NCBI GenBank assembly: GCA_008632985.1
Contig: QPGO01000369.1
Location: forward strand, 1-37,631
Direction: 5' to 3'
Length of the DNA stretch: 37,631 nt
DNA from: Psammoneis japonica
Lineage: Eukaryota
This document shows positions 1 through 26,809 of this stretch, piece by piece. Position 1 is the stretch's first letter, and every line of letters starts with the position of its first letter. Under the pieces are notes generated by a model. The model was not told the DNA's origin. It searched no databases and saw only the letters and a program-made list of their open reading frames with translations. A program made the position numbers and the translations under genes.

Positions 1-3000
1 GTCAAAAACACTTCGGTCAGGCACAAGGCACCCCTCCAACGGCACCTCCGTTGTCCATGGACCCAGGCCATGAAGGTGACACCATTGTGGCGGATCTCAT
101 TCTTGATGGCGAGCATGACACGTCGGCTTTGAACGAAGCAACTGCCCTTTTCATCAACCACTTGCGTCGCCGTTCCCCAGTCTCTGCACCGAATCTTCCA
201 TCTGCATCAGATCTTGAAGGAAAAATAAAACGTTGGAAAGAATCCACCTCCACGTCCATTTACTCCGGCCTCCACCTGGGTCATTGGAAAGCAATGTGTG
301 CTCCTCATCGGTTCTCAGATGCAACTGATTCCGAAGGCAATCCCACCCCTGAACGTGAGGCCCTCGATGAAGTTCAACAATCCCTCACTCAAATCAGGTT
401 GAATCTGCTTAACTGTGCCCTTCGTTGGGGATGCTCCTTTCACCGCTGGCAAGATGTTGTCAACGTGATGATCTTTGAAGAGCCAGGCAACAACAAGATG
501 CATCGTCTCTGTGTCATCCATGTCTGCGAAGCTGACTTTCAATTAATCTCGAGCGTCAAGTGGCGCGCTCTGGCCCAAAACATGGAACACCGCCAATTGT
601 GCAACTCGGGGATCTGCGGCACTCGCGCCTTCTTAAATGCCAACACTCCTGTGTGCCTTGAAGAACTCATGCTCGAGATTGGCTGTGCCTCCCGAAAATC
701 CGCTGTTCATGGCGATGATGATTGCACATCGTGTTGCGATCGGAATGTTCCCGCTCTGGTTGCAATTGAGAGCCGCAGCAATGGCATGCCCAAAGAAGTC
801 ACTCAAGTTGCTGACGCTGCTGTTCACAAGGCTCGCTGCTGGTTGCGAACAGTGCCAGGCCTGTCACTAACTTCTTGTTCTCACTCTGATGACTTCCCCA
901 TTTACGGAACAGGACAGGGCAGCGGAAACTCTCCATTTTGCTGGAACCAAATTTGCAACAGTCTGTTCCAGATCTTCGATCAACGGGCACATGGTGCATT
1001 TTTCGAGTCCCCAGATCACTCCCTCTTGCTGCAGATGTTCAACGGAGGACATGTCGACGACACGTCCAAGCAGGTGAACGATTTTTGTTCGAGTCCTCAA
1101 CCTTGCATCCTCGATTTGGATTTCAAGATGCAGGAAGATAATCAACTGTGGTGCGACCTTTTGAACGCGGCTGGCCACGAGTTAGAATTGCCCAAATGCT
1201 CCTTCCACGCTGTCGAATGGATGTTTGCAGTGGACGGCGAACCTCACCTTCGACCCTGCAATGAGGACATTGACATTGAAATCTCTTCTGCAGACCATGC
1301 CACGACTGGGTCAAGCAAACAATTGTCCTCATGCTCTTCTCACAAGACACTTGGACACCACAAAGCTCCAGCGGGGACTCAAAAGACCCAGCACTCGGCT
1401 CTGAAACAAAAGAGTGACGGCATTGCCCTGTTCCTTTGGTCTTGTCCTTTAGATCGACACGAGTCATGGACTCACTGTTTTGCTTGTTGTCTGTCTGCAA
1501 CCACGCATGTTCTCCCGAACACTCACTTCAAGGAGAAAGAGTTGCTCGAAGTGCAGAGGAAGGCCATGCGTGCCATTTTTGCCAAATGTGGATGCAATCG
1601 GAGCTCGAAACGTGACGTCCTCTTCGGACCTCATTCCCTGGGAGGCGGTGGTTTCAGATCTTTAGACGTGGAACAGGGTGCAGCGCAGGTTCTGCAGTTT
1701 CTCACCCACTGGCGGGGCTCTGGGCAACCTCAGGTGTTGTCACGAATCGCTGCATCGTGGATTCAGTTGCAGCTTGGCACAGGTGTGAGTTTTCTTCAGG
1801 ACGTCCATGCCAAGCTCCCTCATTCCGAATCGAAATGGTTCATGTCCTTGCGTTCATTCTTGGCCCGGATCGATGCCACCATCGATTGTGATTGCACTGG
1901 AGTGCTTCCACTCCAGCGAGACAACGACCAACACATCATGGACGTTGTGCTTCAATCCCAGGCGTTCAGTGATCGTGAGATGCGGTGGGTCAACTGCTGT
2001 CGTCTTTGTCCAAATGTTTTGACTCTGTCGGACATTGCCTCTCCGGATGGTTTTTCGCTCGATCCCTTTAAAGTGAACGGCCGATCGTTCCTTCTCAGCA
2101 GTCGCAGTGCTCTGAATCCTGTCGAACAACAACGTCCATCTGCTTGGGCATGGAAACAGTGGCGTCGAGCCTGTTCCTTGTTTTGCAAACCAGACTCGCT
2201 CGATCTACGACACCCTTCAGGTCAATGGGTTGCACCAGCTACGGAAATGCGCATGACACATGTCGCACATTACAAATCCTCCGAGGATCACTTGCACATT
2301 CGTGGAGATTCGGGTTTTGAGATTTTCCCAGTGCACCAAGGTTGTGCGGAGACTCTTGCCGCTCTGGAAAACGTTCCAGATCTTTCCCCAGCCGCTTCCC
2401 CTGTGCCAGCAGATACGACTGCAACTGGTTTGTGGCGGGTCAAGTCATTTGGTTCTCCAGCATCCTTGCTGACAGTCCTTCCCGTCCCGAATGATTTCTT
2501 GGCTGTGCTGCAGTCTCTTCCTCGGTGGGAATCTGCTCTGTTCGAAGAGTTGCATTTACATTGGTCTACATTTGAAATCGCTGAGCTCCTCGTCACCCAC
2601 AAGGTTTCAGCAGCTAGCGACGGTTCGGTCCTCCATTTCAAAGGCACATTCGGGTGGACGATTGCGATCGACGGGGTTCCTCTTGTGGATTGTGCCGGTC
2701 CAGTTTTCGGTTTTCGCCCATCGTCTTATCGTGCGGAGGCATGCGGTCTGCTGTCTTTTCTCTGTTTTCTGATCCGATTGTCAGACTGTTGTTCCACACA
2801 GGTCAGCGGCGCCGATTTGCATTGCGACAATTCCGCTCTCATTCGCACTGTCTCGAATTTCCAGGTGATTCCTCATCCTGCCAACAAGGAGGAGATCCAA
2901 GGAGACTTCCACTGGCATTTTCATGTTGCCAACACTCTCTCTCCGGATTGGGACATTGTCAATGAGGTCTTCCATTCCCTGAGACAGCTGTCAGAAGCAC

Positions 3001-4245
3001 GCACTGATGAACTGTCATGTCCTGCAGTCGAGATTCACTGGGTGAAGGGACACCAAGACGACATCCTTCCCATTGACTCTCTCTCTCAAGCGGCGAAGTT
3101 GAACATGCGTGCCGACAGACTCGCTGGACAACTCCAAGGTCGATTTGTGGGCGATGCTCTTGCTGCTCCCCGCATGCCTCATTGCCAAGCAAACCTGCTT
3201 CTTCAAGGAGCCACTGTTTCTTCCAAATGCAAGCCAGTTGTCAGATGTCAGGCATCGAGTCCCGCACTGGTTCAGCACATGAAAGAGAAATGTGGTTGGT
3301 CCGACGAAGTGTGCGCATCGATTGACTGGGATGTTCATTCGAAATTGATGTCACGAAACATTCGTCGAAAAGTCAGTGCCATCAAGCTGGTTCAAGATCT
3401 TCTGCCCACCAACAAGATTGCACACAGATGCAATCCGACACGTCCGGACTGTTGCATTCACTGTCAGGACCCCATGGAAGATAGAGACCACATTCTCCAT
3501 TGCCCTCACAATGAAGCCTGGCGCAGAAAATTTTTGCAAGGATCACGCAAGAAGTGCGATGACACTCACACGTCTCCTTCCTTACGAGACTTGATGGTTT
3601 TGGCTGTTGAAGCATGGTTTCGAGGCGAGCTTTTGCACTCGGAACAATTTCATCACAACGTCGTGCCCGCATTTCATTCCCAAGGGGAAACAGGTTGGTG
3701 TCAGTTGTTTGATGGCCGTTTTTCTGTCCAGTGGAATGCGACGCAAACCTCTTGCCTTTCGTCGAGCGGCATTTGTCGGACTCTCTCAGATCAACAGAAA
3801 CGGCTGGATTGGGCTGCAACCATTGGGAATTTCACATGGGAGCAGTGGTGGGACCTCTGGGATGCTCACAATGACGCTGCACACGGACACGATTCGGAAA
3901 CGAGGAAGTCGTCTCAAAGACGAGACGCAGAAGCAGAGGCCAAGGCCATTCATTCTCGTGCAGACGATTGTCTTGCGAGAGACAAGGCGCTCCTCCTTGA
4001 TTCGGCAGAAGAACACCTGTCACACTCCACTCACCGGATTCGAAACTGGTTGGCCATGTTCAAACCAGTCTTTAAATCAAGCATGCGCGAAGCCAAACGT
4101 TTGGCTGCACGAGGCACCAGAACCATCGCAAGTTGTTTTGGCGCGGCATCACCCTTGGGTGACGCCGATCTTGGCCAACCACTGTTTGCTCCTGCCGCAC
4201 TTTTAGTGTGCTGGGGGTGTGGGTTGGCTTGTTGCCGGAGTTGCA
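1..4245 (+). mobile_element. Non-LTR retrotransposon (LINE, RT + RNase H, diatom Ambal-like architecture), 5' part outside the window
   Basis: Long ORF2 with RT, RNase H and a C-terminal Cys/His knuckle. The 3' segment 4190-4245 (ctgccgca...gtgtgctgg..gtgtgggt...gttgc) matches the 3' end of the minus-strand copy at ~6856-6912, which defines the approximate element end. Confidence 0.85.
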
Positions 4246-4295
4246 GGGTGGAAGCGCAGCAGCACTGTAAATGTGGAATTTTGGTTTTGTTTTGA
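51..4295 (+). pseudogene. LINE ORF2 (reverse transcriptase, RNase H, zinc knuckle); open but hypermutated
   Basis: RT motifs IYGTGQGSGNSP and GGHVDDT (normally [YF]VDD). RNase H motifs ASDGS, SSYRAEACG, HCDNSAL, WVKGHQD, NMRADRLA. C-terminal CIHC...DHILHC. Only 4 Tyr in 1414 aa. The true start is upstream of the window, and the native stop was probably near 4140-4200 and lost. Confidence 0.85.
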
Positions 4296-5122
4296 GTTGG
4301 TGCTGGACATCGTTCTTGTTGAAAACAGCGTTTGCAAAAAGGCGCGAGATGATGGTGTGCAGATGACCATTGCTGTTCTTCAAGGTTGGCTCGAAAAAGC
4401 CCAACCCATGGTTGTGGCCGACCAAACATCTGCAGTTGAAGCGATGCCAGCACATGAACCCCTTTTTGGTGGACGATCAACTGGCGAGTGGAACAAGAAT
4501 TCAAGCATGTGCCAGTTGGCCAACAGGTGCCTGTCAAAGACCATCAACACAACGGACAGCAATGAAGAGGCAACGCACAAGTTGAAGGCAGAATTCACTG
4601 AATTGAACAAACAGCGTGGCGCCGTTGCTTGTGCCATCGCTTGCATGCAGCTGGGCAAAAATGTGACTCCAAAGCGGCTGAAGGATGAAATCCACTGCAG
4701 GGGATGCAATGCCGATGACGAATTTGATTGCTCAGATGCTGACCCTTCCAAAAAAAAGTTTCGAACTGTCGTCCAATTGGAAAAAGAGAAACTGTGGGGC
4801 GAGGCTGCGGGGAAATTTGTGTTTGACGAGGATCAAAGTTGCAGCGACCACAACAACTTTGACGAGTCCCACAAGGACCCAAAATCAGCGGAAGAGCATG
4901 CAATGATCGATGCAACACTCATCCACCAGAATCATTTCAACACCTCCCGACATGAACACTTGGAGCTCAACAAAGGTGGGTTCGACAGAGGCCAGGACAT
5001 CGATCATTCTCAAAAAACTGGAGATTCCGAGCACACTGCTAAATCTCAGCCGTCAGCTGCGAGGCAGCAGGAAAATCCTGAGGTCGACGGTGTCGAGACG
5101 AATGAAACGACAGGAACTTCTG

Positions 5123-5213
5123 GTCGGTCAGCCAAGTGGGGCGAAATGGAGCCAGTGATGGTCCCAAAATGACACAGTCTGCACCTCACACGTCGACTCT
5201 GAACATGATGCAG
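5123..5213 (+). other. Putative spliceosomal intron (91 nt)
   Basis: GTCGGT donor, CTCAC branch-like motif at 5185, CAG acceptor. Removal restores the frame (G|AA = Glu). Confidence 0.55.
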
Positions 5214-6702
5214 AAAATGCCGAGTTGGTTGAACATGAGCAAGGCATCATTTCTGAATGGTTTCAAGACAATGAATGCACAGTCCCAGAAGGAACCGTGA
5301 TTCAGGAAGATGCAACGAATGGTGATGCAGCACAAGATGCAGCCAAGCTGGAAAAAGACGACCTTGCATCTGTGCAACAAAAGGGCCATGGTGATGGCCA
5401 GAAGGCAGAAGAAGGCAAGTCTGAAGAGGGGCAGAAGACATCGTCAGGTGAAGCATTTCAGCCAGGTGAGCAAAGGCGAAATGGAGCCAGCCATGGCCCC
5501 AAATGGCGCTGTCTTCGTTTCTCACGTAAAACCTTTCGAACGCTGTGCAGACAAACAAGACTTGGACAAAATGGACCCAGCACTGGACCCAAATGGCTCA
5601 CCCCGTGCTGGGCAGGACATTTCTGGAAATGTGCAAGACCATGGCTCCTTTCCAGTCCAAGACGATGATGGCGAGATGCAGGGATCACAAGACAGCATTG
5701 AGGATCCCGTTGCATCTCTGAATTCACACAAAGCCTCAGAGGGTGATCAGTCTGAAGCGGCTTCTCAAGAATTTGACAGTGCATCTGAAGAACTGAGTGC
5801 AGCTGGAGAGGAAATCCAGGCGGAAGAGGAAAGCAAAGCTGAAGAGAAATGCCAGAAGGAAGTTGAGCAGGAGGATGCGGAGTCGTCAGGCAACAACGAT
5901 GATGGGAAATGTGGTGACGGCAACAACAGAGCAAGCAGGCAAAAACGGGAGGGAGATCGTCAGAAAAAAAATTCTGACAAGAACGATCGTGACCACGAAG
6001 ACAAAGCCAACAAGCAAAGTGGAACAGAAAAGGTGCGGAAAGAATTGTTCCAGAACAAAGAGCACAACAATGATGGAGACGCGGAAGGACTTCCAAAGGC
6101 AATCGAACAGGACCAAGAGTCTGAAACAGCAAGCATTGTCAGCGACGGATCTGACGCACCAGAGCTCCCTGTCGTCAGCGATCAAAAGGCAGCTGTCGCT
6201 GCCTTGAAGGAAAGGGATCCAGCAATGGCAACCATCGAAACATTTGCCACAGCACAAGAGCGGGCAGAGGGTCGTCTGTTTTTGGAAAAGACGAGACAGG
6301 AAGCCAAAGCCAAGAAGAAAAAAGCAGATTCCGGAAAGAAAAGAAAGACAGAGGGCCTCGCTGCTCCACCAAAGTCAAAAAAAAAGAGGAGGGTCATCGC
6401 CACCACGCCCCGTTCCTCTGCGAGAAATCAGAGCAAGAGAAAGACGGGCTGAAACATCAATTGTGCAAAACCACAATCATTGCATGTGTTGAAATTCGTC
6501 TGTGTTTGTGCACCCGGTGTTTTGGCTGACTTGCCAAAATGACATTGCAGTTGTGGACAGCAAACCAGCGTCCAATCCCAGGGGTCATTGGCAATTCCAG
6601 TTGCAGGTCGAAATGGGTCCAGCGTTGGTCCCAAAATGGCACAGTCTGTCCATCACCCGGCAACCGAAATGGGTCCAGCAAAGGTCCCAAATGGGCAGTC
6701 TG
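5143..6702 (+). repeat. Dispersed ~37-nt motif, 5 copies (approx. GAAATGGRNCCAGCNNTGGNCCCAAA(A)TGGNNCAGTCTG)
   Basis: Copies at 5143-5181, 5478-5514, 5568-5600, 6610-6648 and 6666-6702. Confidence 0.75.
5466..5550 (+). other. Putative spliceosomal intron (85 nt)
   Basis: GTGAG donor, CTCAC at 5521, TGCAG acceptor. Removal joins the 5225 frame to the 5310 frame (G|AC = Asp). Confidence 0.7.
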
Positions 6703-6796
6703 TGCGTCGTGCGTCGCCATTTTATGATTAAAAACATTGACGGATGACGTGCAGACTCTTGCCCCAACCCAAAACCGAACCAAAAAGATGCACATG

Positions 6797-6855
6797 CTAA
6801 CCCTGACCCCAAACCCTGACCCCAACCCCAACCCCAACCCTGACCCTGGCCCCAA
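6797..6855 (-). repeat. Degenerate interstitial telomeric repeat (TTAGGG)n
   Basis: On the + strand: partial CTAA, then 9 hexamers (3 CCCTGA, 5 CCCCAA, 1 CCCTGG). All are transition derivatives of CCCTAA. Confidence 0.8.
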
Positions 6856-7132
6856 GCAACGCCAGCGCCGGCTGACCCACACTTCCAGCACACCCTGCAG
6901 AGGATGCGGCAGAAATTGTGTGTGATTGGCTGGATTTGGCGCCTCCGGAAGGGGGGCGCCTGACGGAGATGGCTGAAGATGGTGCAGGTGCCTCTTTTGG
7001 CCAGGCGTTTGGCTTCTTTCAAGCTTTTTTTGAGTCTTGGGAGGGCCACCGAGATCCAGTTTTGAGCCCTTGTTGCAGAAAATGAACGGCGTTTCTCGAC
7101 TGAATCTAGCAACACTCCCCTGTCTTTTGGGG

Positions 7133-7522
7133 GATGCGCTCCAGGTCCAGGTGGGACCTTGCACCGCTGAGCTGTGACATCGACAGTTTTTTGAGTCTCG
7201 TCGCATGTCGCGCACATGGATTTCTGCTTGATTTTTTTGACATTTTGCGTCATTTTACGGCGCACTTGTTGAGCGATCCGTCCAACAACTTTTGACATTT
7301 TTTGTCACAGCGCGTTTCTACAATGTCTTGAGAACCGCGCAGGGCAGGTGAAGTTGCAAAAACGTCGAGTGGTGAGAGGCACAATTGCACCACAAACTTG
7401 GCCATTTGTTTGACGTTGAAGACAAATGTGTCCATCAATTAAATTCTCGCACTGCAGAGCTCGCATGCAGAATTCCACGGGCCCAATGTCACACGGAGTC
7501 CCACCCAGGGCTGGAACGCGTC
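7133..7522 (-). mobile_element. MITE family A copy (~390 bp, TIR GACGCGTTCCAG.CC.GGGTGGGA)
   Basis: Terminal inverted repeats. The interior is a reverse-complement homologue of 17781-18172. Inserted in the LINE C-terminal coding region. Confidence 0.8.
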
Positions 7523-7830
7523 TGGGATGACTTTCAAAGACTCAACATCGTGTCCGTGAACTGGCTTGCCATGCTCTTCCCACAGCTCCCACCAGCTTCT
7601 CCATGTGCAGGATCCCAGCTGGACCGTCCAATCTGGTGGTTGTTTGTTCTCCTCTTGACATTGATGCAAAATGCCTGAATCATGAAGATGACCGGATTGC
7701 AGGAGGTTCCACACAAGCGAGCATCTGCCGTTGAAGATCTGTTGCCATCCAATGTCTGACTGAGCTCTCCACAACTCCTTGCATTGGCAATCCCCGTTGT
7801 TGAGGTGAGTGATTTCCTCACCAAACCAAG

Positions 7831-8106
7831 TGACAGAAATTGAAGGCAAATGGCAAGAATTCAAACAATGGCTCCTTGCTGCTGTCTAAATGGCAGATGA
7901 GTCTCCGCTCAGAGACCATTGCAGGAGCCGAAAGACGTGCAAGTTGGTGCAATCGGGCCACTGTCATTGTTCTTGTGAGCCTTGTGGCTCGAAAGCAAAC
8001 TGCATTGCGCACGAACGCGCGGAACTAAAGCACACAAAACTGTGCGCGGCAAACTAAACAGCGCGTGACATTTCGCGTGCACCTGAATCCTGTTCAAATC
8101 CTGTCA
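7831..8106 (-). repeat. 3' LTR of copia element
   Basis: 276 bp, TG...CA ends, ungapped alignment to 14655-14930 with 27 transition differences. Confidence 0.95.
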
Positions 8107-11100
8107 CTCCCCAGCTTGCTTGAGGAGTCACAGAAACAGATTCTACTTCGGATGGAATGAAGTTCCAGAACATGAGGGGGCGGAGAAGGTCCCAGATTTG
8201 GGAGCAACCCCAATGCTTGCTGAGAATGTCAGCAGGATTGCGGGAGCCTTCGATGAAGTGGAGCTCAAGGCAGCCAGAGGCAATTGCCTCACGCACACGG
8301 TGGAACGACAGTGCGGTGTGTCGCTTGTGTAACTTGGAGTGCGGGATGGTGGCACTGTCTACAACCGACTTGTTGTCACCGAACATGCAACTGACATTGC
8401 GGATCGGGACGCCGAGGTGGTGCAGGGTGATGCGCAGGTCGACAATCTGCTCAACACAAGTCCTTGCGGCAACAAATTCAGACCCATGGGTCGCAGTCTC
8501 CACGGTGGCTTGCTTCTTAGAGAACCAATCAGCTGGAAATTTGTTGAGGAAGTGGAGCATTCCCATGACAGAGCGTCCGGTGAGCATGCAATGGCACAAG
8601 TTTGCATCGACGCAGTGGGTGGCAGTGACGAACTTGCCAAGGGGTGGTGGAGCGTCCTTCGGGATCATCTCTTCTGCTTCGCCGCACATGGAATGCATCC
8701 ATTCATGGGCCGGAGCAGGGAGATCCGAATGGTCGGGCTCTTCCGTTCGAACGCGGAGAGCGCCGTGTCGCATCTTGGAGAGGCACCCACAGACGCATTT
8801 GGCACGATCCAAGTGACCTTGACGGGGCGCAGCTCGGAAGCTAGAGAGTGACATGACGGCTGTGGCAATGTCAATTCAACCAAGAGACACTGCCCATTGG
8901 AGTGAACCAACAAGGGACTGGAACTTGTGAATGCCATCGGGCGCCAGCAGTTCGGAAGTGTCCAGCTCGGGGTGGTCACCCTTCTCCAGAGGTGACAGGG
9001 CGTTGGTGGCAGGTTTCTCCCCAAACAGTCGGGTGCAGCTGTCAACCATGCGCTCGATGTACTTGTGCGGAGACAGGCACAAAGTGCCGTCGGGATCTCG
9101 GGAAAAGTCGCAACCCAGATGGAACTCAATGGGTCCCGCACCCTTGAGCTTGAAGTTGTGCTTTTCCGTGAGAGTGTCGACGAAAGATTGAGGGCCCTTC
9201 ATGGCAATGGCGAGGTCATCCACATAAACGGCAATGTGTTCATGGTGGTCGCCGTTCCTGCGCATCCAAATGTCGGGTTCTGCGCGGCAGGGGAAGAAGC
9301 CTTCAGCTCGTGGGCAGTCGGCGAAGCGCTCGTGCCAGCGGAGACCGGAGCTGCGCAGTCCACACAGGGCCTTGTGGATGACAAGGATGTGTCCTTCGAG
9401 TTTGCCAAATTCAGGTCCGGCTGCAATGTAAAGCTGCTCCTTGGTGGCGGCTTCAAGGTGGGCATTGCCAATGTCGGTGGCCCATGTCTCCAACTCATTG
9501 AGCTCGGCCAGGAAAATCATCAGCCGAAGGCCACGGAGGGAGACCACTCCGGAGTGGACACTGTCGACAGGTGCGTCCGTGAGGTGCCCATCGGCTGCGA
9601 GTCGTGCCTTGTGGTGACCGTCGTGTTTCACGTCATGCACCAGGTGCACTCGGATCTTCTTGTGTCCCGCAGGAGGAGTGGAAGACTCGAAGGGCCCGCA
9701 GTCATGGAAGACTTCGCATTCGTCGAGTTGGCCCATCTCGAGATTAGTTGCGTCTCCCCATTTGTGGTTGCCGTTGCGTTCGTCCAGTGACATGGCGTGT
9801 TTGCAGTTCCGGGGAACTTCGCATCCGTGCTTGCAGCGAGGTGCAGTGCGGAAGGAGCGAAGCTTGGCTTGGTTGGCCATGCGAAATGGCTTCTTTTGGC
9901 GCCTCGCGATGGTGCGGAACCGCTTCCAGCCATCCGTGTCGAGAAGTCCATTCTCTCGTGCATAGATGGCGCAGGTGACGGGGTCGTCCTTGGCGATGAT
10001 GGCAAGAGGCTCGGACGTGATCTCCCCACTTTCCCATTCAAGCATGATGTTGTAGCTTGAGCCTTTCCAGGTTGGGTCGTGAGGCTTCAGAGGTCCTTCG
10101 TGTGACACGATGCGTCGAAATTTCCAAACAGCAGTGTCTTCATCTTCTTGCTCAATGTGATTCATGATGTCGTTGCAGGCAAGGACTTCCTCGCATTCGT
10201 TGTTGTTGACAGAGCAGACGAACCAAGTGAGCTTGGGATTGCCGTTCACTTTCCATTCGTGGTCTTCAACGGCCTTGACGATGCGAGCTCTGTGGCATTG
10301 TCCGTCCTCTTGTGGCTGCATGAGGAAGGTGCGTCCGATGATGTCTTGCGGATCGAAAACTGGCATCTTGGGTGTCCTGATCTCCCCATCAGGAGAATCG
10401 ACGGGGTTGTCGTCATGGCGAGATTTGATGATGGGTTCAGGTGGCTCCCCATCAGGAGGATCAAGACGCAGGTTTCGAACGGCAGGATCGGTGGTGGCGG
10501 AGCGTACGTTGGACCAGTGGAGGACCTTCTGAGTCTCGTCAGAGAGAATCTTGAAGGTCATCTGGTGGCCGACATGCTCAGCAATGCCAACAAAGCTTCC
10601 ACGCAACTCATGGGATTTGGACGGCCAATCGGAGTCATCGAGGTGGAAGCACACGGGTTCCCACCAGTGAAAGCGAAGCAATGGGCTGATGTCCGGGGTG
10701 GAGCCAGTGAGAGTCTCGAGGGGCATGCGCCAGTGGAGATGTGGGGATGCTGTGTGGTTGAGCATGAAGCACACATGCATCAGCACCAGCAGCCATGTGT
10801 GGGCGGGCGAACCAAAACGATCCATGACAGTGTTTGCCATGCGCTTCACGGTCTGGTGTCGACGCTCGGCAAAGTTTTGGTGTTGCTGGTGAGGCTCACT
10901 TTGCCAGCTGGAGATGAAGAGGGCTCGTAGGATCCCGAGCACCTTGTTGCTGATCTCAACTTGAGCACGGTCGCTGATGAGTTTGGAGGGGGCACCACAC
11001 TCACGGATCTGATCCTCGAGTGTGTTGACAAACTCCTTGTCCGTCTTGGTGCCGCAGACGTCAGTGACGGTAGACTTGGTGCCAACAAACAGTTGGGCAC

Positions 11101-13717
11101 TGGTGCAACCAGAGTCGACAGCCGGGGTGTTGGCACAAACGGTGTCAGTGGCAACAGGCTTGTTGCGGCGGTGCACATTAAGGGCGGGGTTGGGTGATTT
11201 GCAGGCCTTCCTAAGGTGTGCACCGGCGGGCATGCGGGCGCACTGCGTGGTGCAGTCAAAAGTACGATGGACCGCATCGGCAGGCAGGAAGCCAAAGCAA
11301 GGTCGAAGAGACTCAAAGGGGGGGTCCTTGGGCTGCACAGTGCGCTCCGGGGGCGGAACGTCGGCGTCCTTGGGGTCAATCGCGTGTGGATGACACTCGT
11401 AGAACACGTCGTTGTTCGGAATGAGATGATCATCGAGGGCGGACGCATGATCGGCAGACAAGGAGGCGGACATGATGGTCTCGTTGACAACGACACGATG
11501 ACGGCAGTTGCCGCATTCGTCAAATGGGTTGGCAGTGGGATCGTCCTGCAGGTCAGAGATCGCGTCGCACCACTGGTCGTCGTCAGTGACAGAGTGATCG
11601 AGGGCGGAAGGATCCCATGTGTCATCACCGGTGAGGATGACATGGGGCAGGGTGTCCCATTCGGCATCAGTGTGAGGTCGCATGGCAACATGAGGCAGGC
11701 CGCCCTTGATGTCAATGGGGATGACATGGCCATCAGGAGTGGCAATGCATTGCAAGCCGTTGGGCACCTTGACAGAGCGATTGTTGACATCCTGTTTGTG
11801 CCATTCGAGCTGGCCGCAGGAGTGGATGGTCTTGCCCGTGCATGCGTGCTGATGGAGGATGGCGATGACGGGACCACGCTGGGTCTCAATGACAGCACCG
11901 GCGGTGACAACAGGGATGTCCACCAATTGATGGTCGTCAATGCCCTGAACGTCGACTTGGCGAGAGGTGCGTGCAATGACGCGAATGTCGTCGCCAGCAA
12001 TGCCGCCGTTGGCCCCACGATCAACTAGAGCGCCAGTGCGTGTGGAGCGATGAGCAGAGGCAGAGCAAATGACATTGTGGTCATTGACGCGGCGGCAAGT
12101 GCGGCCGTTAAGTTCTGTGTCATCGGTGGGAGCTGGCGGAGTGGAGGGATCGGTGGATGGCCCCGGTCGACCAGCATTGGGGGCTTGGTTAGGAGACTGC
12201 AGGTGTTGCAGATCACCGGGTGGCAGCGGCTTGCGCTTGGTGAGGTGCGCCAGGATGGGATTGTCCGAAGTGGCACCCACATTTGGAGCGGGTTCACCAG
12301 AGTCAGCAGGAGTCGTGTGGGACAAGTTGACATCACCATCACTCCCAAGGCGTTGGTCGTGAAGGTTGGCCGTAACGGACTCATGGTGGTTGCTCGCTCG
12401 CGGGTTGCGGGGAGGTGGGCAAGAATGCTCAAGGATGATCACCTTGGAGGAATGGGGCAACGAATCCCAAATCCGTTGGTGGTCGGGAGGGAGACGTTTC
12501 CATTGGTCACCGGTGAGGCTGGGACCACGGGTGCAGGCAGCATCAGCCTGAAGGACGTCAATGTCGCTGTCGATGTCGCAGAACACATCATCGGACGGTT
12601 CGTCGGAGTGGACATCGTGTGCGTGTGTGGCACGTCGGGGAGCTCGAGGTGTCGTCTTGGGTTGAAACGCACTGTCGCATTGAGCTGCCGTGGAGAGGAG
12701 CAAGCCACAGCATTGATCGCATGTGAGGCTCTTGCCACTCTGCGCACGATGCTGATCAGCTTGGTTCTTGACAGCACGGAGTTCCTCGACAGGGTGTGCG
12801 GCATTCTCGAGCATGACATGCTTCTGTCCTTCAGAGAAGTGGTCACTGGCCGGGATGAGTGCCTCGCACTTGCGCAACTGATCTTGCCAATGAAGGATGA
12901 ACCCGTGGGTCGGACCTTTCCAAGTGCCATCACCAAGACGTGAGGTGGTGAGGTGCGTGAGCAAGGTGGAGGACTCGACAGATGCGTGGGTGGAGGCAAG
13001 CGCATGCTCAGACAAGGCGCGGCAGACGGTCTGGGCGTCGGAAGACCCCACATTTTCGTGGATGAGAGCCTTGCCCTTGTCGGTGAGAAGGATGCGTTCG
13101 AAGACGGCGAACATGTGCTTTTGCTGTTCAGCAAAGAGCAGTTTGTCTTCGGGGCTGGTCGGTTTGTACGACGAGTCTAGAGTGCACTCGACATCTTGGG
13201 CACGGGCTTGTGCCACAAGTGAGGTGTGCCAAGTGTGCCACTGCTTGTTGGATTTGAGAGCCGTGAAAGCGGTGGGATCACGCTTGATGCCTCGCTTGAA
13301 GTCCCGCACCGGGTCGCGTGCCTTGGTCGGGTTGGTGACATGCGGAGGTGCAAGGGGTGAGCTGCCGATGGACACAGAGGACATGCAGTCGGGGCTGAGA
13401 CAGCAGGCAAGGAACTCGTCATGTGTGAACAACGAGGAGTCATTGGCAACATCAAGACCTTTGTGTGCTTTGACAATGTGCAGACCAACTAGAGCTGCTA
13501 ACATGTTCTTACAACCGTGGGGCAAAGGGATCACATTGGTGCCGTTGTTGTGCTCAAGCGAGTCGATTTGGGACGGCATGAACGTGAACAGTTCTTGATG
13601 CGAGTCCGCGCCGTCTTGGGCCAAAGCCAAATGAAGAGGGCTCCCAGCACCTTGGGCAAGCACGGTTCCAACAATGTGCTCGAAACCATTGGTTTGTTGC
13701 TGACGAGTGAGAACCAT
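8054..13717 (-). pseudogene. Copia gag-pol polyprotein with one in-frame nonsense codon
   Basis: Protease LVDRGANGG; integrase ISDRAQVE and SEPHQQHQNFAERR; RT HKARLAADG and YVDD; RNase H CVDANL, ATHGSEF, GDNKSVV, NPADILSK. ORFs 8876-13747 and 8054-8854 share a frame and are separated by TGA at 8876-8878, where Arg (CGA) is expected (SLG-R-IDI). 7 Tyr in the 1623-aa ORF. Confidence 0.9.
8107..8119 (-). other. Polypurine tract of copia element
   Basis: GCAAGCTGGGGAG on the minus strand, immediately before the 3' LTR. Confidence 0.7.
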
Positions 13718-14654
13718 GGCAGACAAAAGTGGTGTCAGGACAAGCAATTCCTGCTGGGAAGCGAAGGTAGACTTGAAACTTGGGTGAGAATGGACTTGAC
13801 TTGAAATGGACTTGACTTGAAATCTTGAACTGTCTTGAAGTCAGAAGTCGCCGGGCTGTGCCATCCCGTTCGTTGTTGAGTGCTAAACTTCCCATCCGGT
13901 CCACAGAGTTGTGCCGGCACGTCCAAACCCGCAGCCAGCGGCGCTTTGGGTTGCTTACGAGTGGAGTGGCGGGTTGTAAACCCCTGCAGGCAAGCTGACC
14001 AGAGGTGGACAAGACCCCCGAACCGTTCTTGTTTTATGTCGGTTGGATTTCCCGATCAGGCTGGCCAGTTGACGAAGGCGTTGGGCGCCGTGGACGAACG
14101 AACAAACGCGGGAAAGCACCCTCGCCCCAACGTAGGCTGCAATCACGGCCACTTGCTCTCACAGTCGTCCTCGTGGACCTGGCAGAGCTGCAGAGCACCA
14201 GCAGTCCGGGGCAGATCAGGTGCAATGGACTCGGCATGCTTGCAGGGTGGCAGCAAAACCGCAGTCCGAAGAGTGGGTGCAAGTTCTTGGCCGTGAAGAT
14301 GTGCACATGTGCGTGTGTCTTCAGCAACGAAGATGCTTGAACATGTGGGGTTCTTGACCATTGGCCGATGAATGGGCACATCAAGGGATGAGGATCAAGG
14401 GTGGACTTGGACATGACCGTTGATGTGTGTCTTCAGCGATCAAAGGCAGTGTGATCAATCCAGACATCCAGCGGTGAGGAGATTTGACGGTGACGTTAAA
14501 TTCCTGCCGATGCCTGGCATTGAATGCGCGCAGACTTGCCGATGTGTGTAGAATGCATGCAGAGGTCCATGCAGAATTGAAGTGGCGTCGTCAGCAAATC
14601 AACGATGACGATGGCGGTTGCTCAATGGGTTGACAATGAGCAAGACTGTTGGTC

Positions 14655-14930
14655 TGACAGAAATTGAAGGCAAGTGGCAAGAATTCAAACAACAACTCCT
14701 TGCTGCTGTCTAAATGGCAGATGAGTCTCTGCTCAGAGACCGTCACAGGAGCCGAAAGATGTGCAAGTCGGTGTGATTGGGCTGCTGTCATCATTCTTGT
14801 GAGCCTTGTGGCTCGAAAGCAAACTACATCACGCGCGAACGTGCGGAACTAAAGCACACAAAACTGTGCGCGGCAAACTAAACAGCACGCGACATTTCGC
14901 GCGCACCCAAATCCTGTTCAAATCCTGTCA
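14655..14930 (-). repeat. 5' LTR of copia element
   Basis: 276 bp, pairs with 7831-8106, followed by TSD CCAAG. Confidence 0.95.
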
Positions 14931-17780
14931 CCAAGCCTGCAGCACATCCAATGAAAAGTCACAAAGAACAGGCATTGTGTCTGCCTTGTTGCAGCATCTG
15001 TGCAGACCTTGCAAGAATTTCCTCCTCCACTGTTTGTCATTGGGACATCGAAGAATGTGGCCCCTGTCTTCCATCAGATGATCGCACGCAATGCGCTGGT
15101 GAGGACGAACTGGATTGCATCTGTGAGCAATTTTGTTCATGTGGGTGGTGGCAAGTCATGCACCAGCTTTGCCGCATTGATGTGTTTCTTTGAATGGCAC
15201 TTCACCAGGATTGCACGGGCATTCCAATCGACTTGCTCCATCACTGAAGGGGTCCATTGGCTGCATTCAATGATGCAGTCGATCAATTGGGGGGCGGTGG
15301 CTGCATGTCTGATCTGTTTCTTGTGGCTCGATGTTGCAGTGCCTCCCTCTGTTTCGAGGTGAGAGTTGCAATGAGGCAGATGCTTGACTTGTCACACAGG
15401 CAGTGACCCTGACATGCTCCTGCCAATCTGTCAGCGCGGATGTTGACTCTGGCGTTTGTGGGCAAGGCATGGACTGGAGAATGCCTGCCTTGATGTCCTT
15501 TCACCCATGAGACTGGAGGGAGAACAAGATCCTCTGAATCCAAAAGCTGCTTCAGAGTTTGCTGGGTGTGAAGAATTTTGTTCAGAACGTCCCAATCTGG
15601 AGCAATGGCATTGGCGCCATTGCAGCGAACATGAAAATTGTGTGGAGCGTGAGCTTCTTCGTCTGGGTCAATCGCTGGTGGGGCAGATGTCAACCGGGAA
15701 AGACCGTCGACCAAAGCCTTGTTGTCACAATGAATTGCCGCGTCCAAAGGAACCGAAATCCAACAACATTCACACAATCAAAAAATGAACCGTGCAATTG
15801 AAAGGATGCCACAGGCCTCTGCGCGATGCGAAGATGGCATCTTTCCAAAAATGGGTCCTGCGCAATTCACTGATGGTGCGCCGTCTGAGGCAATCGTCCA
15901 TCCGAAGGTGGCTCCCTCCCCAGCTGACCCGTCACTGCCTGTGGTGAGAGTTGCAGGTGGGCAACTCCTCTTGAGTGCTTCAACAGTTGTTGAAGTTGGG
16001 CCACTCCTTGTTCAACATCAAGCGATCGAAAACCTCCGCCTCCCAATGACTGTGGTCTGTAGAGAATGAGCCTTTTGGTGTTTCTGTTGTGACCACATTT
16101 GGCAAAAATCGTCCGCATGGCCTTTTGTTGTGCCTGTTGGAGCTCTTTTGGAAGAAAATTTGAGCCAGCCAGAACACATGTCATCAAGGAGAGGTGACAA
16201 GCGTGGCAATGTTTCCATGTTTCTGTCCTGTCCAGTGGGCACAACCTGAGAAACAAGGAGACAGCATTGCTCTTGTGTTGGAGTTTCTTCAACTGAGTTT
16301 TCTGTGCACCGATTGGAGTCATGCAGTGTCCCAGGGTTTTGTGAGGTGTGTGTGCTGACAATTGCTGGCTGCACCTGGAAGTGGTTTGGTCAGTGGAAAA
16401 GATCTCCACCTCAATGTTGTCATGACAGGGTCACATGTGCGGTTCTCCACACTCTGTAAAGTCCCATTCTGTGGCATGGAAGGAACACTTCAGCAACTCA
16501 AGTTCATGTCCTGCTGTGTCCAACAAGTCACACCACAGCCGGTTGTCCGATTGGAGAGACTGGGACAACTTGAGCGCGGAGGGCTGAGGACTGGCTCTGA
16601 AATCGTTCACCTGCTTGGAAGTGTCATCAACATGACCCCTGTTGCATGCTTGGATGTAGAACTGTCCGTCCAGAGTTTTGAACAACAAACCAACAGCTTC
16701 AGCATCAAAGATGTCAAACAGTCCACTGCGCAGAGTGTTCCAGCACCAAGGAGAATTTCCGCTGCCTTGTCCTGTTCCGCACAACGGGAACTCAGAGGAA
16801 TGGGAACAACTTTTTTGGGCGATTCCTGACAGAGTGCACAGCCAATGACATGCATGATGTGACATCGCCACATTGACTTTGATCACTCTCTCGTGCATGC
16901 CATCACTCTTTGCACACAAACCCACTGTTGCTGGGATGTTCCTGTCACAGCAAGAAGTGCAGTCATCATCACTGGTGAGCAAAGTTTTCCGGGTAGCACG
17001 TGACATTTCCAGCATCAAGTTTTTGAGAAACACAGGCGTTTGGGCGGAAAGGAAGGAGCAACATCTGTAAATCCCTGGGTTGTGCATTCAGTGGTGATCC
17101 ACATGCTGGGCTAATTTGCGCCACTTGACGCTTGCAATCAGTTGGAAATCTGCCTCGTAGATGTGAATCACGCACAATCGGTGCATTTTGTTGTTGCCTG
17201 GTTCTTTGAAGATCGTTGCATTCACAGTGTCTTTCCATTGTTTGCGTGAGCAACCCCACCTTAAAGCGCAGTTGATCAGGTTAAGTTGCATTGCCACAAG
17301 GGATTGCTGGACCAAGTCCAACAATTCTTTCTGCTCGGATGGATTCCTGTCATTGTCACAATCATTTGCATGGGAATGTGGAGCGCACAGGGCCTTCCAG
17401 TGTCCCAGACAAATCCCTGACTTCAATGAAGCAGATGTTGACTCTGACCACAATTTTGTCTTCAAGTGGAGAGCCTCAGGAGTGAGAGAATTTGGAGCTG
17501 TTGGTGGTGTCCTTCTTCGAAGATGCTGTGTCAGCAGCAAAGTGGCGCGGTTCAGGTGTCCAGTTTCATGTTCTCTGTCTAGGATTAAATTGGCCATGAC
17601 AGTGTCTCCTTCACATCCAAGGTCAACAAACAAGGGTGGGACAGTGAGAGGAGTGCCACGTGCCTGTCCGAAGTGTCGTTGGTTTTTTTGCAGTGCTGGA
17701 GCGCAGATTCAATGTTGTCTGGGGCATCTGTCATCACCCAATTCTCGCACGTTTTGGGGTTGTCTCGGGGGTCTTCAGGT

Positions 17781-22286: not shown

Positions 22287-22348
22287 CAACATCATGAGCA
22301 CAATGATGGATGCCTGCACCGTCAGCGAATTTTTATTTCTTCGTGCAT

Positions 22349-22445
22349 TCATGTGAACCCAACGGACCAATGCACAAAAATGTTGTGAAGGTCAACATTT
22401 TTCATGTGAACCCAATGGACTGATGCACAAAAATGTTGTGAAGGT
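22349..22445 (+). repeat. Short direct duplication (~44 bp x2)
   Basis: tcatgtgaacccaaYggacYRatgcacaaaaatgttgtgaaggt occurs twice. Confidence 0.8.
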
Positions 22446-22635
22446 TGGCACTGCTTCAGCGACAAGACACATTCTGTGCTCGCCAAATCGCCAATGGTTT
22501 TGAGGCTGGGAACCCCCTTGTTTTTTGGTGAATTTTGGAAATTTCAAACAAAAAATGTCTGAAACAAGACAGTGTTTTTCACAAATGCGTGCAATTTGTG
22601 GAAAAATGTTCAAAAGGCTGGAGAGCGAATGCTGA

Positions 22636-22834
22636 GCTCACCGTGCAAACAACACGACAATGGCCGAAATGCCATCCATTGAACGCAATGCAGGCTTGGA
22701 GGCCTCCAACTTTCTTCATGAGTTTGTTGACCATGTCAAATGCGACACACTGTGAAAAAAGTTGGAGGCTGCCCCTGTCAGTTTTCGAGAACGGATGGCA
22801 TTTCGGCCATTGTCGTGTTGTTTGCACAGTGAGC
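22636..22834. mobile_element. ~200-bp MITE-like element with 45-bp inverted arms
   Basis: 22636-22680 and 22790-22834 are reverse complements with 2 transition mismatches. Confidence 0.7.
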
Positions 22835-22882
22835 ACAGAACACGTCAGTGTGTTTTTTCCACATTTGCATCACAAATGATTG

Positions 22883-23670
22883 AGGCGGGTCAGTCGCCAC
22901 TTTTTTTAGCTCGAGTTCGGTCGAACAGCTCGCATTTTGCATGGTTTTTCCTGAATTTCACCGTGCTTCACTGCAGTGAAAACAACAAGCCACAAGTCTG
23001 TGACGGAGGTGGCCCATCTGCCAACTCTCATTTGTTTTGTGTTTGTTGTGCATCAAAGATTGTGCATGCATGAAAAGTTGACAGACGGCATGCTGCATTT
23101 TTGAGAAATGTCGATGATTGTCATCATCGTCGTGCTTCGATTGCGGTGTTGATGGTTCTCGTTTTCGTGCACGACCGGGTGTGACCATGAACAATTGTTG
23201 CATTCAAAAACAAGCACTGCAAAAAATCTCACGCAAACACAACAATGGCAATTCTGGGACAAACGCGGGGGTGACCCGCCTCAACCCCCGCGTTTGTCCC
23301 AGAAATTGTCATGGCATTTGAATGAGGACATTTGCAGTGTTTGTTTTTGAATCCAAAAATTGCCCACATTCACCCCCGATCGTGCACGAAAATGAGAACA
23401 TCAGGCGCCGTGATCGAAGCACGACGATGACGGCAATGTTGACACAAGTCCAAAACACAGTGGTCCGTGTGCAAACATTTGATGTGTGTGTGACCTCAGA
23501 CACACAACAAGCACAAAACAAATGAAAGTTGATGCACGGCCCACCTCCGTCACAGACTTGTGGCTTGATGTTTTCACCACAGTGAAGCACGGTGAAATTC
23601 AAGAAAAATCATGCAAATCACGAGCTGTTCGGCCAAATTGGAGCCAAAAAAAGTGGGGGATGACCCGCCT
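22883..23670. mobile_element. Inverted dimer of a ~400-bp non-autonomous element forming a ~790-bp quasi-palindrome
   Basis: The arms 22883-23272 and 23284-23670 are reverse-complement homologues. Termini AGGCGGGTCA/TGACCCGCCT. Perfect 21-bp central stem 23252-23272/23284-23304. Confidence 0.8.
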
Positions 23671-23792
23671 TAGAACACCAGTTGTTTTTCATGCGTTTTG
23701 CAAACACATGTCAAAAACACAAGGGATTTCCCACCCTCAATCGTTAAATGTCAATCAAGAGTTGGTCGCAGAAAGATGCCAACTTGTCATTT

Positions 23793-24087
23793 GCAATCAA
23801 AAGCAATCAAAAGCAACAATGAGTGATGAAAAGTGATCACAAGCAATCAAAAGTCATCACAAGCAATCACAAGCAATCATGAGCAATCACAAATGATCAC
23901 AAGCAACCGCAAGCAATGAAGACAAATGTCCACAGACAAGCTGACACAACAGCCCTTTAAATCTGACCGTTGACATGACATTTTTGCACAAGAGACACAC
24001 ACTCGACTTTTTAAAGTAATCACAAGCAATCAAAAGGAATCAAAAGCAACCACAAGTGATCACAAGTGATCATCAGTCATCACAAGC
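23793..24087 (+). repeat. 10-bp tandem satellite, inferred ancestral unit AAGTAATCAT (mutated copies, two blocks)
   Basis: Units aagcaatcac, aagtgatcac, gagcaatcac and aagtcatcac at ~23793-23920 and ~24013-24087. The array continues at 26810-26860 beyond the Sola element. Confidence 0.8.
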
Positions 24088-26809
24088 AAGACTGGCCACA
24101 CAGAAAGGTGCTGACAGAGCTCGAAATGGCTCGCATGGTCGATTTTGAGGTGTGGATGCCAATCGAAAGCTCTTGATCTCAGCTCTTCAGCGATGTGTGT
24201 GTCAATGGCTGGCAATGCTTCCTTGACATTTTGTCAGCCACAAACCAAATTAACGGCTTGAATTGTTTGCTGTGAGTGTTTTGACCGTTGAGGAATTGCG
24301 CGAAATGACATGCCAAGAAAGTCACGCACACAAGTTGTGCAAAAGCACATGATTTTTAAGATTGTGCAAGTCTGCACAAATTGTCAAGCACTTGACATGA
24401 GGCTCAAATTTGAAATTCTCTTGGTGGAGGCAACAAGAGCAAAAGCAAAAGCGTCACAAAAAAAATGGCGCGGCCGAAACTGACCAAAGGCGTCAAGGAC
24501 GATGAGGCAGCAGAAAAGTTCTGCGATTGGCTTTCTGACCCCAACGAGTCTCCCATTTTCCATGAACATTGTGCCCAGGTGACTGCAAAGAAACCTGCGA
24601 AATGTCAGTGTCTGCAGAAGCCAAGAGTGATGTTGGAGAACAATGACACCTCCGTCGTGAAAATGTTGAGCAACTGCCTCGTGTGCTTTGAAAGACTGGG
24701 GTGCACAGAAACACATGCTGCTTTTACATCCTGGATCAAATGTTCTGCTTTCATTCAGAAGCATGCATGCAAGGGTGATTGTCGCTGCTTTGTTTTGCCG
24801 CTGTTGAAAACTGACGACAATGACGAGGAGGAGGCGGAGGAGGGGATGCCGCCGGACGATCATCTGGTCTGCCATGGTGCCCTCCTTGCATTGCTGGGCA
24901 AAGGGAGAAAGTTCTGGAGAACCGCCAAGTTGAGTGCAAAGAGCAACATCTTTCCGAAACATGGTCTCAAAGGGAAGACTGGGCAGAACGCGAACAAGAC
25001 GCTTGTGCCCGAAATGTTTGCAGCCCTTCACGCACATTTTGATGACATGAAGGAACTTTCTGAGCCACGTGCAACGAGACTGGTTAGAGAAGAGACAGGT
25101 GTCGGCTTGAGAGATGAAGACACACACGACTTGCCTCCCACCGTGAAAAAGCGTGGATTGTGCAAACGGCGCAGACAAGAAAATGGTTGGACCCTCAAAT
25201 CGAACCACAAAGGCAAGTTTCTTAAGGCGGAACCAATCGAAGGAGAAGACCAGCAACCAATGTGCTCCTGGGCACAATTTTGCAAGTTCTGGAAAAAGAG
25301 CTGTCCTGAAATTGTCGTGAGAAGGCCCACTCGTGACATCTGCGATGAATGCTGCAAGTTCGCAAATGGCTTCAGGATGAAAGCGATGAAAGAAAAGACG
25401 GGGGGTGAGAGCAACGACGACGAGGATGAGGAGGAGGAGAGCGATGATGATGAAGAAGATGGAGCAGATGCAGAGGTGAGAATGAAAGAGATTGAAGAAC
25501 AGGAAAATGAAATGTTGCATGCCACAAAGCACGTCGAGTGGGCTCGAAAGCAACGGACACTCGTGCAACAGCACATTTCGGAAGCGACAGAACACGCAAA
25601 AGCCGACAAGGCACATGGCGAGCGAACTTGCGCAAGGATTGGTGGCTGTTGTCAAAATGGCGGGCTTCCACATTTTGGGGCGGATCAGCCAGGGGAGACG
25701 CACTGCTTCTCTCCTTTGACAATCAATGTGTTTGGGGTTGCCGATCCTGCGGGGAAAAAAGTTGTGACGGTGACGGAAGATGAGTTCAAGGATTTTTTGC
25801 ATGCACGCGTCTGCCATGAGGGTGCTGGCCAAAAGGGAGGTGACAATGTTGCTTCCCTTGTGATGAAGCACTTGCATGATGGTGGATTGTTGGACATCAG
25901 TGAGGGTCCAGGCGGAAAGCTCACATTGATTTTTGACAACTGCATCGGGCAAAACAAAAACAACACGGCATTGAGACTTGCTTCTTGCCTGGTGGAACAA
26001 GGATGTTTCAAAGAAGTGAGCATCATTTTTTTGATGAAAGGGCACACCAAGAATGCCTGTGACAGGCTCTTCAACAGCCTCAAGCAAACTTGCCGTGACA
26101 AGAACATCGGCACGTTCTGCAAACTCTTGACAGCCTTGGACACCTCCGAATGCGTTCAGGTCGTTGAAGCGAAGGAGGAGGATTTTGTGGGGTGTGGAGC
26201 GCATTTTGACCAACATTGCAAGAAGTGCAGCGCAGCTGTGAAGCACCACTGCTTTGAAGTGACAGACTCTTCGGAACCCACGGCAGCAACAATGAAAGCA
26301 GCGGACGGTGAGCCAGAAGTTGCCGAGGATCTCAAGAAGAGGAAGACAGAATCGAGCGAGCAACGAAAACAGAACTTGCAAACGTCACAACCACTTGCCT
26401 TGACAGCTCCAGGCATCAAGGACATCAAGAAGGTCGAGCTTTGTGCCAAGCATCAGCCGCTTCTTGACAAGGCAGACCAAGACGAGATGTGCCCTCATCC
26501 TGGAGACGACGTCCTCAATCGCGTTGCGAAAAGCAAGAGAGAGAAGCGGAAGAACAAGCAGGCGGAGAGCGCTGAGCAGATGGCGCGAAATGAGAAAAAG
26601 AAAACCGCCAAAGCCAGTGCAGTTCTTTCGGAGAGGGACACAAATAAAAATTAATGGCAGTCCTTGTGTACACACAAATTTTATGTGATGTTTTATGTTG
26701 ACACTTTAATTGTTTGACATCGCTCAAAAATCTTGTAAGTGCCATTTTCTCGAAACAAATTTTGAGAGCTCGAGAGCGCGCGTTAGCACCTTTTTATGTG
26801 GCCAGTCTT
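24088..26809 (+). mobile_element. Sola1-like DNA transposon, 2722 bp, 28-bp TIRs, 4-bp TSD
   Basis: Left TIR AAGACTGGCCACACAGAAAGGTGCTGAC (24088-24115). Right TIR reverse complement AAGACTGGCCACATAAAAAGGTGCTAAC (26782-26809). TSD AAGC (24084-24087) / AAGT (26810-26813). Single transposase ORF. Confidence 0.85.
24465..26654 (+). pseudogene. DDD-type transposase (Sola1-like), open 729-aa frame, hypermutated
   Basis: PTRDICDEC; IGGCCQN...LPHFGADQPGETHCFSPL (expected D-Y-x-QN...ETYYFSPL); FDNCIGQNKNN; FLMKGHTKNACDRLF. No Tyr in 729 aa, and the first catalytic Asp appears to be Gly. Superfamily assigned from motif recall. Confidence 0.8.

Follow-up and report, generated by a model that had tools for sequence, protein, structure and literature searches.

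TpA-restricted hypermutation is described in a preprint on Bigelowiella natans (bioRxiv 10.64898/2026.01.13.699255), according to whose main text it strikes integrated nucleocytoplasmic large DNA virus (NCLDV) and virophage DNA, 230 of 231 mutations being transitions. The process is reported there as ongoing, at a rate raised about 1000-fold per generation and in some lines only, and the adenine deaminase ADAT2 is proposed as its agent. Here we examine a stretch of 37,631 nucleotides from the diatom Psammoneis japonica (assembly GCA_008632985.1, contig QPGO01000369.1, positions 1 to 37,631 of the forward strand; "the window" hereafter), in which nested transposons are depleted of TpA (TA below). 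Homologues of one host gene, where their organism is named, all come from diatoms. Aligned genomic copies of the transposons show, as far as they can record it, a TA mutator that acts in mobile-DNA domains, on both strands, by transitions only and in dependence on context.

As in Bigelowiella, to judge from that main text, TpA becomes TpG or CpA on both strands and almost only by transition (here 5106 TG or CA outcomes against 19 others at 442 sites). The domains affected are foreign and largely silent, and a repeat is not needed, the NCLDV region there being single-copy; TpA-poor reverse-transcriptase and DDE genes are seen there too. The present case differs in concerning a diatom and all transposon classes, in being near saturation, and in being inferred from copies, with no mutation-accumulation experiment. 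The main text of the preprint contains no flanking-context analysis (its supplements may hold one) and mentions neither a polymerase nor a diatom; as far as was searched, measurements of the order of preference for the base 3′ of the mutated A (+1), of strand independence, of coupled hits and of a leak at adenines outside TA exist only here. For diatoms, a literature search outside subscription journals found no published description of the process, returning only work on fungal repeat-induced point mutation (RIP), methyltransferase papers and the Bigelowiella preprint. Metagenome scans with the transposase (no confirmed case among 212 pattern matches) and with the Copia protein (three relatives, all TA-normal) found no second organism with the process. 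As far as these searches reach, the process is of a known kind in a new lineage, and its fingerprint is new within them.

RIP of ascomycetes resembles it in being a dinucleotide-specific, transition-only, both-strand mutation of transposons. RIP converts C to T, mainly CpA to TpA. Here the direction is the opposite, TA to TG or CA, strand-coordinated tracts are lacking, and the process is not homology-triggered: multi-copy transposon ends beside normal DNA keep their TA, and TA also persists in histone-gene duplicates and in a methyltransferase duplicate that is broken. RIP was rejected on its opposite direction and on edges that do not follow duplication. RIP depends on a RID/DNMT4 enzyme and on the sexual cycle. 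Several candidate genes for such an enzyme are present in this genome. DNMT4/RID-like genes occur in diatoms (PMC9998398; papers given by PMC number, here and below, are cited from excerpts).

The window is laid out as follows, coordinates being those of the window.

1..26640, no strand: TpA-depleted domain of nested transposons, from the TA observed/expected ratio (O/E) and 4-mer counts
3..4295, plus strand: retroelement with a stop-free frame of 1430 amino acids (aa), open at the window start, without a Pfam hit; presumably non-LTR/LINE-like, by its reverse transcriptase and RNase H motifs
7831..14930, minus strand: Copia-type long terminal repeat (LTR) retrotransposon, with RVT_2 in frame 8876-13840
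7831-8106 and 14655-14930: the Copia LTRs, with a 5-bp target duplication
7887..8056, no strand: three surviving CTAAA in the left LTR (7887, 8026, 8055), matched at 14711, 14850 and 14879 in the right LTR
24088..26811, plus strand: DNA transposon with terminal inverted repeats, DUF7869 frame 24414-26654 (746 aa)
26641..30500, plus strand: TA-normal stretch of transposon end and host gene (M12B-like peptidase with fibronectin III repeats, from Pfam), used as internal control
30501..37631, no strand: second TpA-depleted domain, strongly CpG-poor too, from TA and 4-mer counts

Per kilobase, TA O/E is 0.00-0.18 across 1-26000 and 31001-37631, against 0.59-0.66 in the host gene (27001-30000), and the DUF7869 frame retains zero tyrosine. 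The 116 TA remaining in 1-26640 comprise 58 YTAR, 52 mixed and 6 RTAY sites; going by the bases that flank TG and CA steps there, 27.7, 60.3 and 28.0 would be expected (chi-square p 6e-12). In the control (26641-30500), 26 of 159 TA are YTAR and 35 RTAY; in 30501-37631, 18 TA remain, 9 of them YTAR and none RTAY. An initial annotation of this DNA, made from its letters, had remarked that residual TA mostly follows a pyrimidine, often precedes a purine and very rarely lies in RTAY; the counts bear this out (79 of 116, 89 of 116, and 6 against 28.0 expected), the first two remarks being mostly one effect because TA is a palindrome read on two strands. The motifs it singled out are present within one base at seven positions (TA at 410, 544, 634, 868, 1183, 1450 and 1663), and so are the CTAAA survivors shared by both LTRs (7887/14711, 8026/14850, 8055/14879). 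Counted on both strands (232 strand-sites), the base 3′ of the surviving A is A in 100, G in 68, C in 53 and T in 11; TAT/ATA survivors are rarest (11 of 232), and TAC/GTA, at 53 of 232, are not rare by raw count.

Ancestral sites were reconstructed from 45 genomic copies of three transposon families found in the window, ranked by likeness to the window copy: the best 30 of 40 scored Copia copies from 441 candidates (region 7831-12500), 7 of 30 LINE-like loci, and 8 of 19 for the DNA transposon (cut-off 88% identity over 800 nt).

LINE-like: 7 copies at 93-100% identity, 161 ancestral TA sites, now 175 TA, 403 TG and 365 CA
Copia: 30 copies, 160 ancestral TA sites, now 1083 TA, 2046 TG and 1566 CA
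DNA transposon: 8 copies, 121 ancestral TA sites, now 236 TA, 391 TG and 335 CA

Two kinds of column pair are seen, TA/TG/CA and CG/TG/CA; TA and CG meet in one column pair at 3 places as against 442 TA-class sites. The three metagenome relatives (protein identity 50-53%) have a normal TA O/E of 0.70-0.79, and at 12-13 of their 24 tyrosines the window copy has His or Cys. Because TA and CG hardly share columns and TA-normal relatives carry Tyr, the direction of change, as read from the alignments, is TA to TG or CA. Copia copies share states no more than by chance (0.739 observed, 0.748 expected), so each copy was mutated separately after insertion. Survival of TA is 0.23 in Copia, 0.19 in the LINE-like family and 0.25 in the DNA transposon (75-81% lost), a hazard of 0.70-0.84 per adenine; sites with an identical product in all copies are invisible, so that the hottest one-strand sites are under-counted. 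Transversions at non-TA adenines (59 of 65086 copy-sites) give a background rate roughly sufficient to account for the 19 other outcomes at TA sites.

Dependence of TA survival on flanking bases, fixed beforehand as the test of the context preference that had been proposed, holds over all families and in each. Across 395 of the 442 sites (sites as units, transposon ends excluded), mean survival is 0.43 at 62 YTAR, 0.19 at 213 mixed and 0.09 at 120 RTAY sites (Kruskal-Wallis p 2e-11; by family 0.03, 5e-8 and 0.01). With sites of unstable flanks dropped, pooled 4-mer survival descends from TTAA and CTAA (both 0.46) through CTAG (0.29), CTAC (0.25), GTAA (0.22), GTAC (0.21), ATAA (0.17), ATAC (0.115) and ATAG (0.113) to ATAT (0.02); CTAA/TTAG, the context of the CTAAA kept in the LTRs, is one of the two 4-mers that survive best. 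Fitted to 440 sites, a competing-hazard model (site bootstrap, rates relative to A) assigns the base 3′ of the mutated A hazards of 3.5 for T (2.7-5.0), 2.9 for C (2.3-3.9) and 1.7 for G (1.3-2.7), which upholds per strand the TAY preference claimed in the initial annotation. For the base 5′ of T the values are C 0.66, G 0.63 and T 0.68, A being about 1.5-fold better; one base further 5′, T has 0.52, and T ranks worse two and three bases further 5′. Per strand, then, the target is T-A-Y with the A mutated, T at -1 being nearly absolute. Strand choice alone (427 sites), which is blind to local intensity, points in the same direction in all three families, and two families predict the third with r 0.44 (0.53 in reverse). 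Loss is no higher at TACG than at other TAC (61 and 206 strand-sites, p 0.39), no preference for hairpins or unpaired A was detected (two weak negative trends, p 0.04 and 0.03), local GC content has no effect on site survival, and site survival shows neither nucleosome-like periodicity nor spatial autocorrelation (|r| at most 0.11).

Outside TA, rare A-to-G changes occur at 191 of 65086 copy-sites (0.29%), distributed over AA (59/16758, 0.35%), CA (75/23636, 0.32%, a figure confounded by CpG decay) and GA (57/24692, 0.23%). The AA-to-AG changes seen in the initial annotation do therefore occur and are not special to AA. Without the rare-allele filter AA-to-AG reaches 0.4-0.85%, and TA is about 100-200 times hotter than AA. 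By +1 base the AA leak amounts to 26/2968 at AAT, 22/4474 at AAC, 9/5662 at AAG and 2/3654 at AAA, and the +1 bias of pyrimidine over purine is common to TA mutations and to the faint leak at AA, CA and GA. Neighbouring hits 2-5000 bp apart show no strand coordination beyond chance against permutation (27 family-by-distance bins, 25 of them within 2.3 z); the outliers are the DNA transposon at 2-10 bp (z 2.7) and three others at |z| of about 2.1-2.3, among them LINE-like bins at 100-200 bp (z 2.3) and 400-800 bp (z -2.1). No bias between coding and template strand was found (intercepts 0.12, -0.04 and -0.10, all intervals spanning 0), and site survival is related neither to CpG distance nor to local CpG decay.

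A small class of hits is coupled on one strand. A second A-to-G at -2 (ATA to GTG) accompanies 16 of 874 same-strand hits, compared with 1 of 954 on the other strand (p 8e-5) and 0 of 217 at intact TA sites, in 14 distinct columns from all three families. At +1 (TAA to TGG) the figures are 15 of 587 same-strand, 9 of 1166 other-strand (p 0.004) and 2 of 756 intact. Neither coupled A-to-G at -3 or +2 nor other changes near TA hits are enriched. Of the 28 copies that span LTR position 20, 27 read AAA there and one reads AAG; LTR positions 39-41 read CAA in 17, TGA in 10 and TGG in 1 of 28 copies, so that the TAA-to-TGG change supposed in the LTR was right as an inference. Coupling in about 2% of hits, at -2 or +1, suggests that the footprint of the enzyme is very short, and the enzyme-like origin put forward initially gains support from transition purity and from these same-strand pairs.

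The depletion is confined to mobile-DNA domains and spares host genes, except that histone-like and methyltransferase copies inside depleted domains are TA-depleted too. The DNA transposon of the window retains TA over its final 170 bp, next to the host gene. Among the copies of this transposon, three with TA-normal left flanks hold 30-32 TA in their first 400 bp, and two with depleted flanks hold 4; one copy with a normal flank holds only 9, so the edge rule is not strict. Among duplicates, histone genes at 95-97% identity keep 31 of 34 TA, for which selection could account, and the broken methyltransferase duplicate (85-91%) shows 15 and 13 changes in the two directions, that is, no directional loss. 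Because transposon ends beside normal DNA and these duplicates keep TA, the edges, which track neighbourhood more than homology, point to targeting of chromatin domains. Per copy, TA loss correlates with CpG loss in Copia (rho 0.68, n 30) and the LINE-like family (0.82, n 7), the DNA transposon giving 0.40 (n 8, not significant); age or shared silencing fits this correlation.

Several observations accompany these domains. Five histone-like copies (L124-L128) are TA-depleted, with 0-2 TA in the match, other examined histone genes being normal. Several C5-methyltransferase copies (L094, L095, L096, L100, L103), some in tandem, lie in TA-depleted DNA (O/E 0.03-0.11) and are possibly carried by a mobile element. 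A 10-bp tandem array (23770-24087 and 26810-26874) is split by the DNA transposon; units to its left are TA-free variants and units to its right still hold TA, a small picture of a domain edge. CpG O/E is 0.10-0.45 in 30501-37631 and 0.62-0.93 in 1-14000; such low CpG at similar TA loss suggests older insertions in 30501-37631 and a TA clock that saturates first.

The reading that we lean towards, and hold probable without being sure of it, is an adenine deaminase working on silenced chromatin domains. A host enzyme would convert the A of TpA to inosine in DNA, inside such domains, and replication would read the inosine as G. The first hit would destroy the palindromic TA and leave the partner strand safe thereafter; single hits would build up over many generations, survivors would be the slow contexts (TTAA, CTAA/TTAG), and, in about 2% of the cases that allow it, an A at -2 or +1 of the hit strand would be converted too, as a bystander in locally opened duplex. 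The likely role would be mutational inactivation of mobile DNA. Candidate enzymes, named from their sequences, are the product of an ADAT2-like gene and those of two ADAR/ADAT1-family genes. One of the latter, the second ADAR/ADAT1-family deaminase (L111, C79:343669-346890), has intact catalytic motifs and is conserved across diatoms, only the deaminase domain being annotated in its relatives. The ADAT2-like gene, and a TadA-like gene also present in the genome, are labelled from their motifs. In the same genome no match was found for an MPG/AAG-type glycosylase (positive control matched 4/14) or for MT-A70, whose absence is not established because no positive control matched.

TadA-derived base editors and ADAT2-ADAT3 resemble the process in changing A to G only, most readily after a T, well before a C and least before an A (PMC8989541), with bystander editing of a nearby A. 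ADARs share the A-to-I chemistry, with 5′ U/T best and G worst (PMC3113232; PMC5389660), and deaminate dA in DNA/RNA hybrids (PMC5389660). Editing of RNA by an ADAR does not fit, since it would be one-stranded and both strands are affected here. With some hesitation we put forward a stronger version, which we regard as possible but less likely than not: a natural adenine base editor, ADAT2/3 or an ADAR-like protein without double-stranded RNA-binding domain, conserved across diatoms, acting on chromosomal double-stranded DNA at T-A-Y and guided by silent chromatin, without long single-stranded tracts, as one ancient anti-transposon and antiviral system common to diatoms and Rhizaria.

A number of points weigh against a deaminase. 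A-to-G on one strand equals T-to-C on the other, and modification of the A looks the same in sequence as modification of the T; the ±3 context accounts for only about 20-28% of site-level variance; and a short error-prone gap fill would also yield coupled hits. The deaminase genes resemble ordinary housekeeping genes, the ADAR-like one having relatives in many diatoms, and an endonuclease V gene, whose product could repair inosine, is present. TACG or hairpin contexts would be expected of a TadA/ADAT-type deaminase; here TACG, hairpins and unpaired A are not favoured. Base editors are engineered, are guided to single-stranded DNA in R-loops and show a T preference of only 25-52%, with editing lowest after A (PMC8989541), whereas T is favoured more than 100-fold here and A is not the worst 5′ base (compare the AA, CA and GA leak above). 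ADAR preferences include 5′ A and, for ADAR2, 3′ G (PMC3113232). Of the likeness to TadA drawn initially, the +1 order thus fits, and the far stricter T requirement and the tRNA-like contexts do not.

Among the alternatives to a deaminase, the one that survives best, though we think it improbable, would have TpA in silenced DNA opened into very short gaps, which a polymerase-iota-like enzyme then fills, inserting G opposite template T. The genome carries five Y-family polymerase genes, including an iota-like one (L105, C22:251128-254793) whose best PDB match is human iota (E 2e-26). Facing a template T, human iota chooses G over A by a factor of 3-10, and it has dRP lyase activity (PMC2194173); iota contributes to tandem mutations (PMC6423074), and coupled hits within 4 nt on one strand agree with such a gap fill. 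The scheme nevertheless requires a second, hypothetical step of TA-specific nicking or base removal; iota misinserts opposite most template bases (PMC2194173), yet no other changes are enriched at or beside hits, and an enzyme favouring G opposite any T would be expected to convert an adjacent A more often than the roughly 2% seen.

Slightly further from credence stands the thymine as target: a modified T at TpA, the second base of R-T-A-T in that reading, would mispair with G. In sequence this is formally equivalent to the adenine reading, and the genome contains several methyltransferase genes that, by their motifs, are presumably DNMT4/RID-like, a family recorded in diatoms as noted above. 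We know of no C5-methyltransferase chemistry that turns T into C, the coupled changes would require a neighbouring T on the opposite strand to be modified too, and a genome search for TET/JBP gave no match, a weak negative since no positive control matched.

It is also unlikely, if compatible with deamination and not exclusive of it, that the lesion at TpA is blind to its flanks and the bias stems from DNA shape or from repair that rescues TAA and A-tract contexts better, in which case the flanks would say little on the mutator. T-rich 5′ and A-rich 3′ flanks protect, as DNA flexibility would predict, alternating RTAY sites are hottest, and endonuclease V is available for biased repair; set against this, the +1 order recurs in the leak at non-TA adenines, and local GC content is without effect.

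We give little credit to polymerase eta resynthesising repair patches begun at deaminated methyl-CpG, as in somatic hypermutation, although the initial annotation had placed eta level with a deaminase and held that sequence could not separate the two. Two genes (L106, L108) are, by their motifs, presumably eta-like, per-copy TA and CpG loss correlate (rho 0.68 and 0.82, with 0.40 not significant), and eta mutagenesis at WA motifs shares A to G at TA, arising near C deamination. The TA:AA ratio of polymerase eta is usually near 2; here it is about 100-200. Eta does make T-to-C changes at TA motifs in vitro (PMC9723645); AA, however, is an eta hotspot (PMC7884765), whereas here only 0.35-0.85% of AA became AG and the hazard per A at TA is 0.70-0.84. 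Both transitions and transversions occur in repair tracts (PMC9723645), and transversions here are at background. The same-strand fraction equals its permuted value, which leaves no patches, and site survival is unrelated to CpG distance or local CpG decay. On TA:AA ratio, spectrum, strands and CpG, then, polymerase eta as characterised in somatic hypermutation does not fit; the claimed parity is not upheld, and sequence does distinguish the two mechanisms.

The least credible explanation is an assembly or base-calling artefact, RNA editing brought in through reverse transcription, or selection: all copies do come from one assembly, but a miscalled symmetric modification should give CG too, which is absent at TA sites, a 543-nt contig of sequencing run X1 equals 15287-15829 without difference (0 TA against about 20 expected; a check of base calling only, because the run may be the assembly's own sample), both strands are equally mutated relative to the coding strand, the DNA transposon is affected alike, and Copia survival is 0.20-0.26 in each of the three codon phases.

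No natural enzyme is established as a genome-wide A-to-G DNA mutator, and experiments have documented the TpA process once, in an alga unrelated to diatoms and in a paper whose main text is free of flanking context. Any candidate must reproduce the fingerprint obtained here: a +1 order of T>C>G>A, a T requirement above 100-fold, 2% coupled hits at -2 or +1, and no strand tracts. The 231 published Bigelowiella mutations can be compared with it, which bears on whether one mechanism operates in two distant lineages, and polymerase eta and homology-triggered RIP are removed as leading ideas. If a deaminase were confirmed, it would add a new branch to the genome defences of eukaryotes and might supply enzymes for DNA editing.

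Some features of the window stand apart from the mutator. Very long stop-free frames run on both strands over 3-26654; they exist because TAA and TAG have been lost and are no proof that the elements are intact. Contigs of sequencing run X2 represent the host gene and hardly any transposon sequence, an imbalance that is no evidence of silence. Within the host peptidase gene (27209-30222), an X2 contig skips a GT..AG stretch at 28265-28343, and the contigs of both runs show single-base indels against the window at 28583, 29424 and 29841, so that its apparent frameshifts are probably assembly errors. At 22632-23670, nested long inverted repeats with arms of 49, 121 and 222 nt possibly represent a non-autonomous element.

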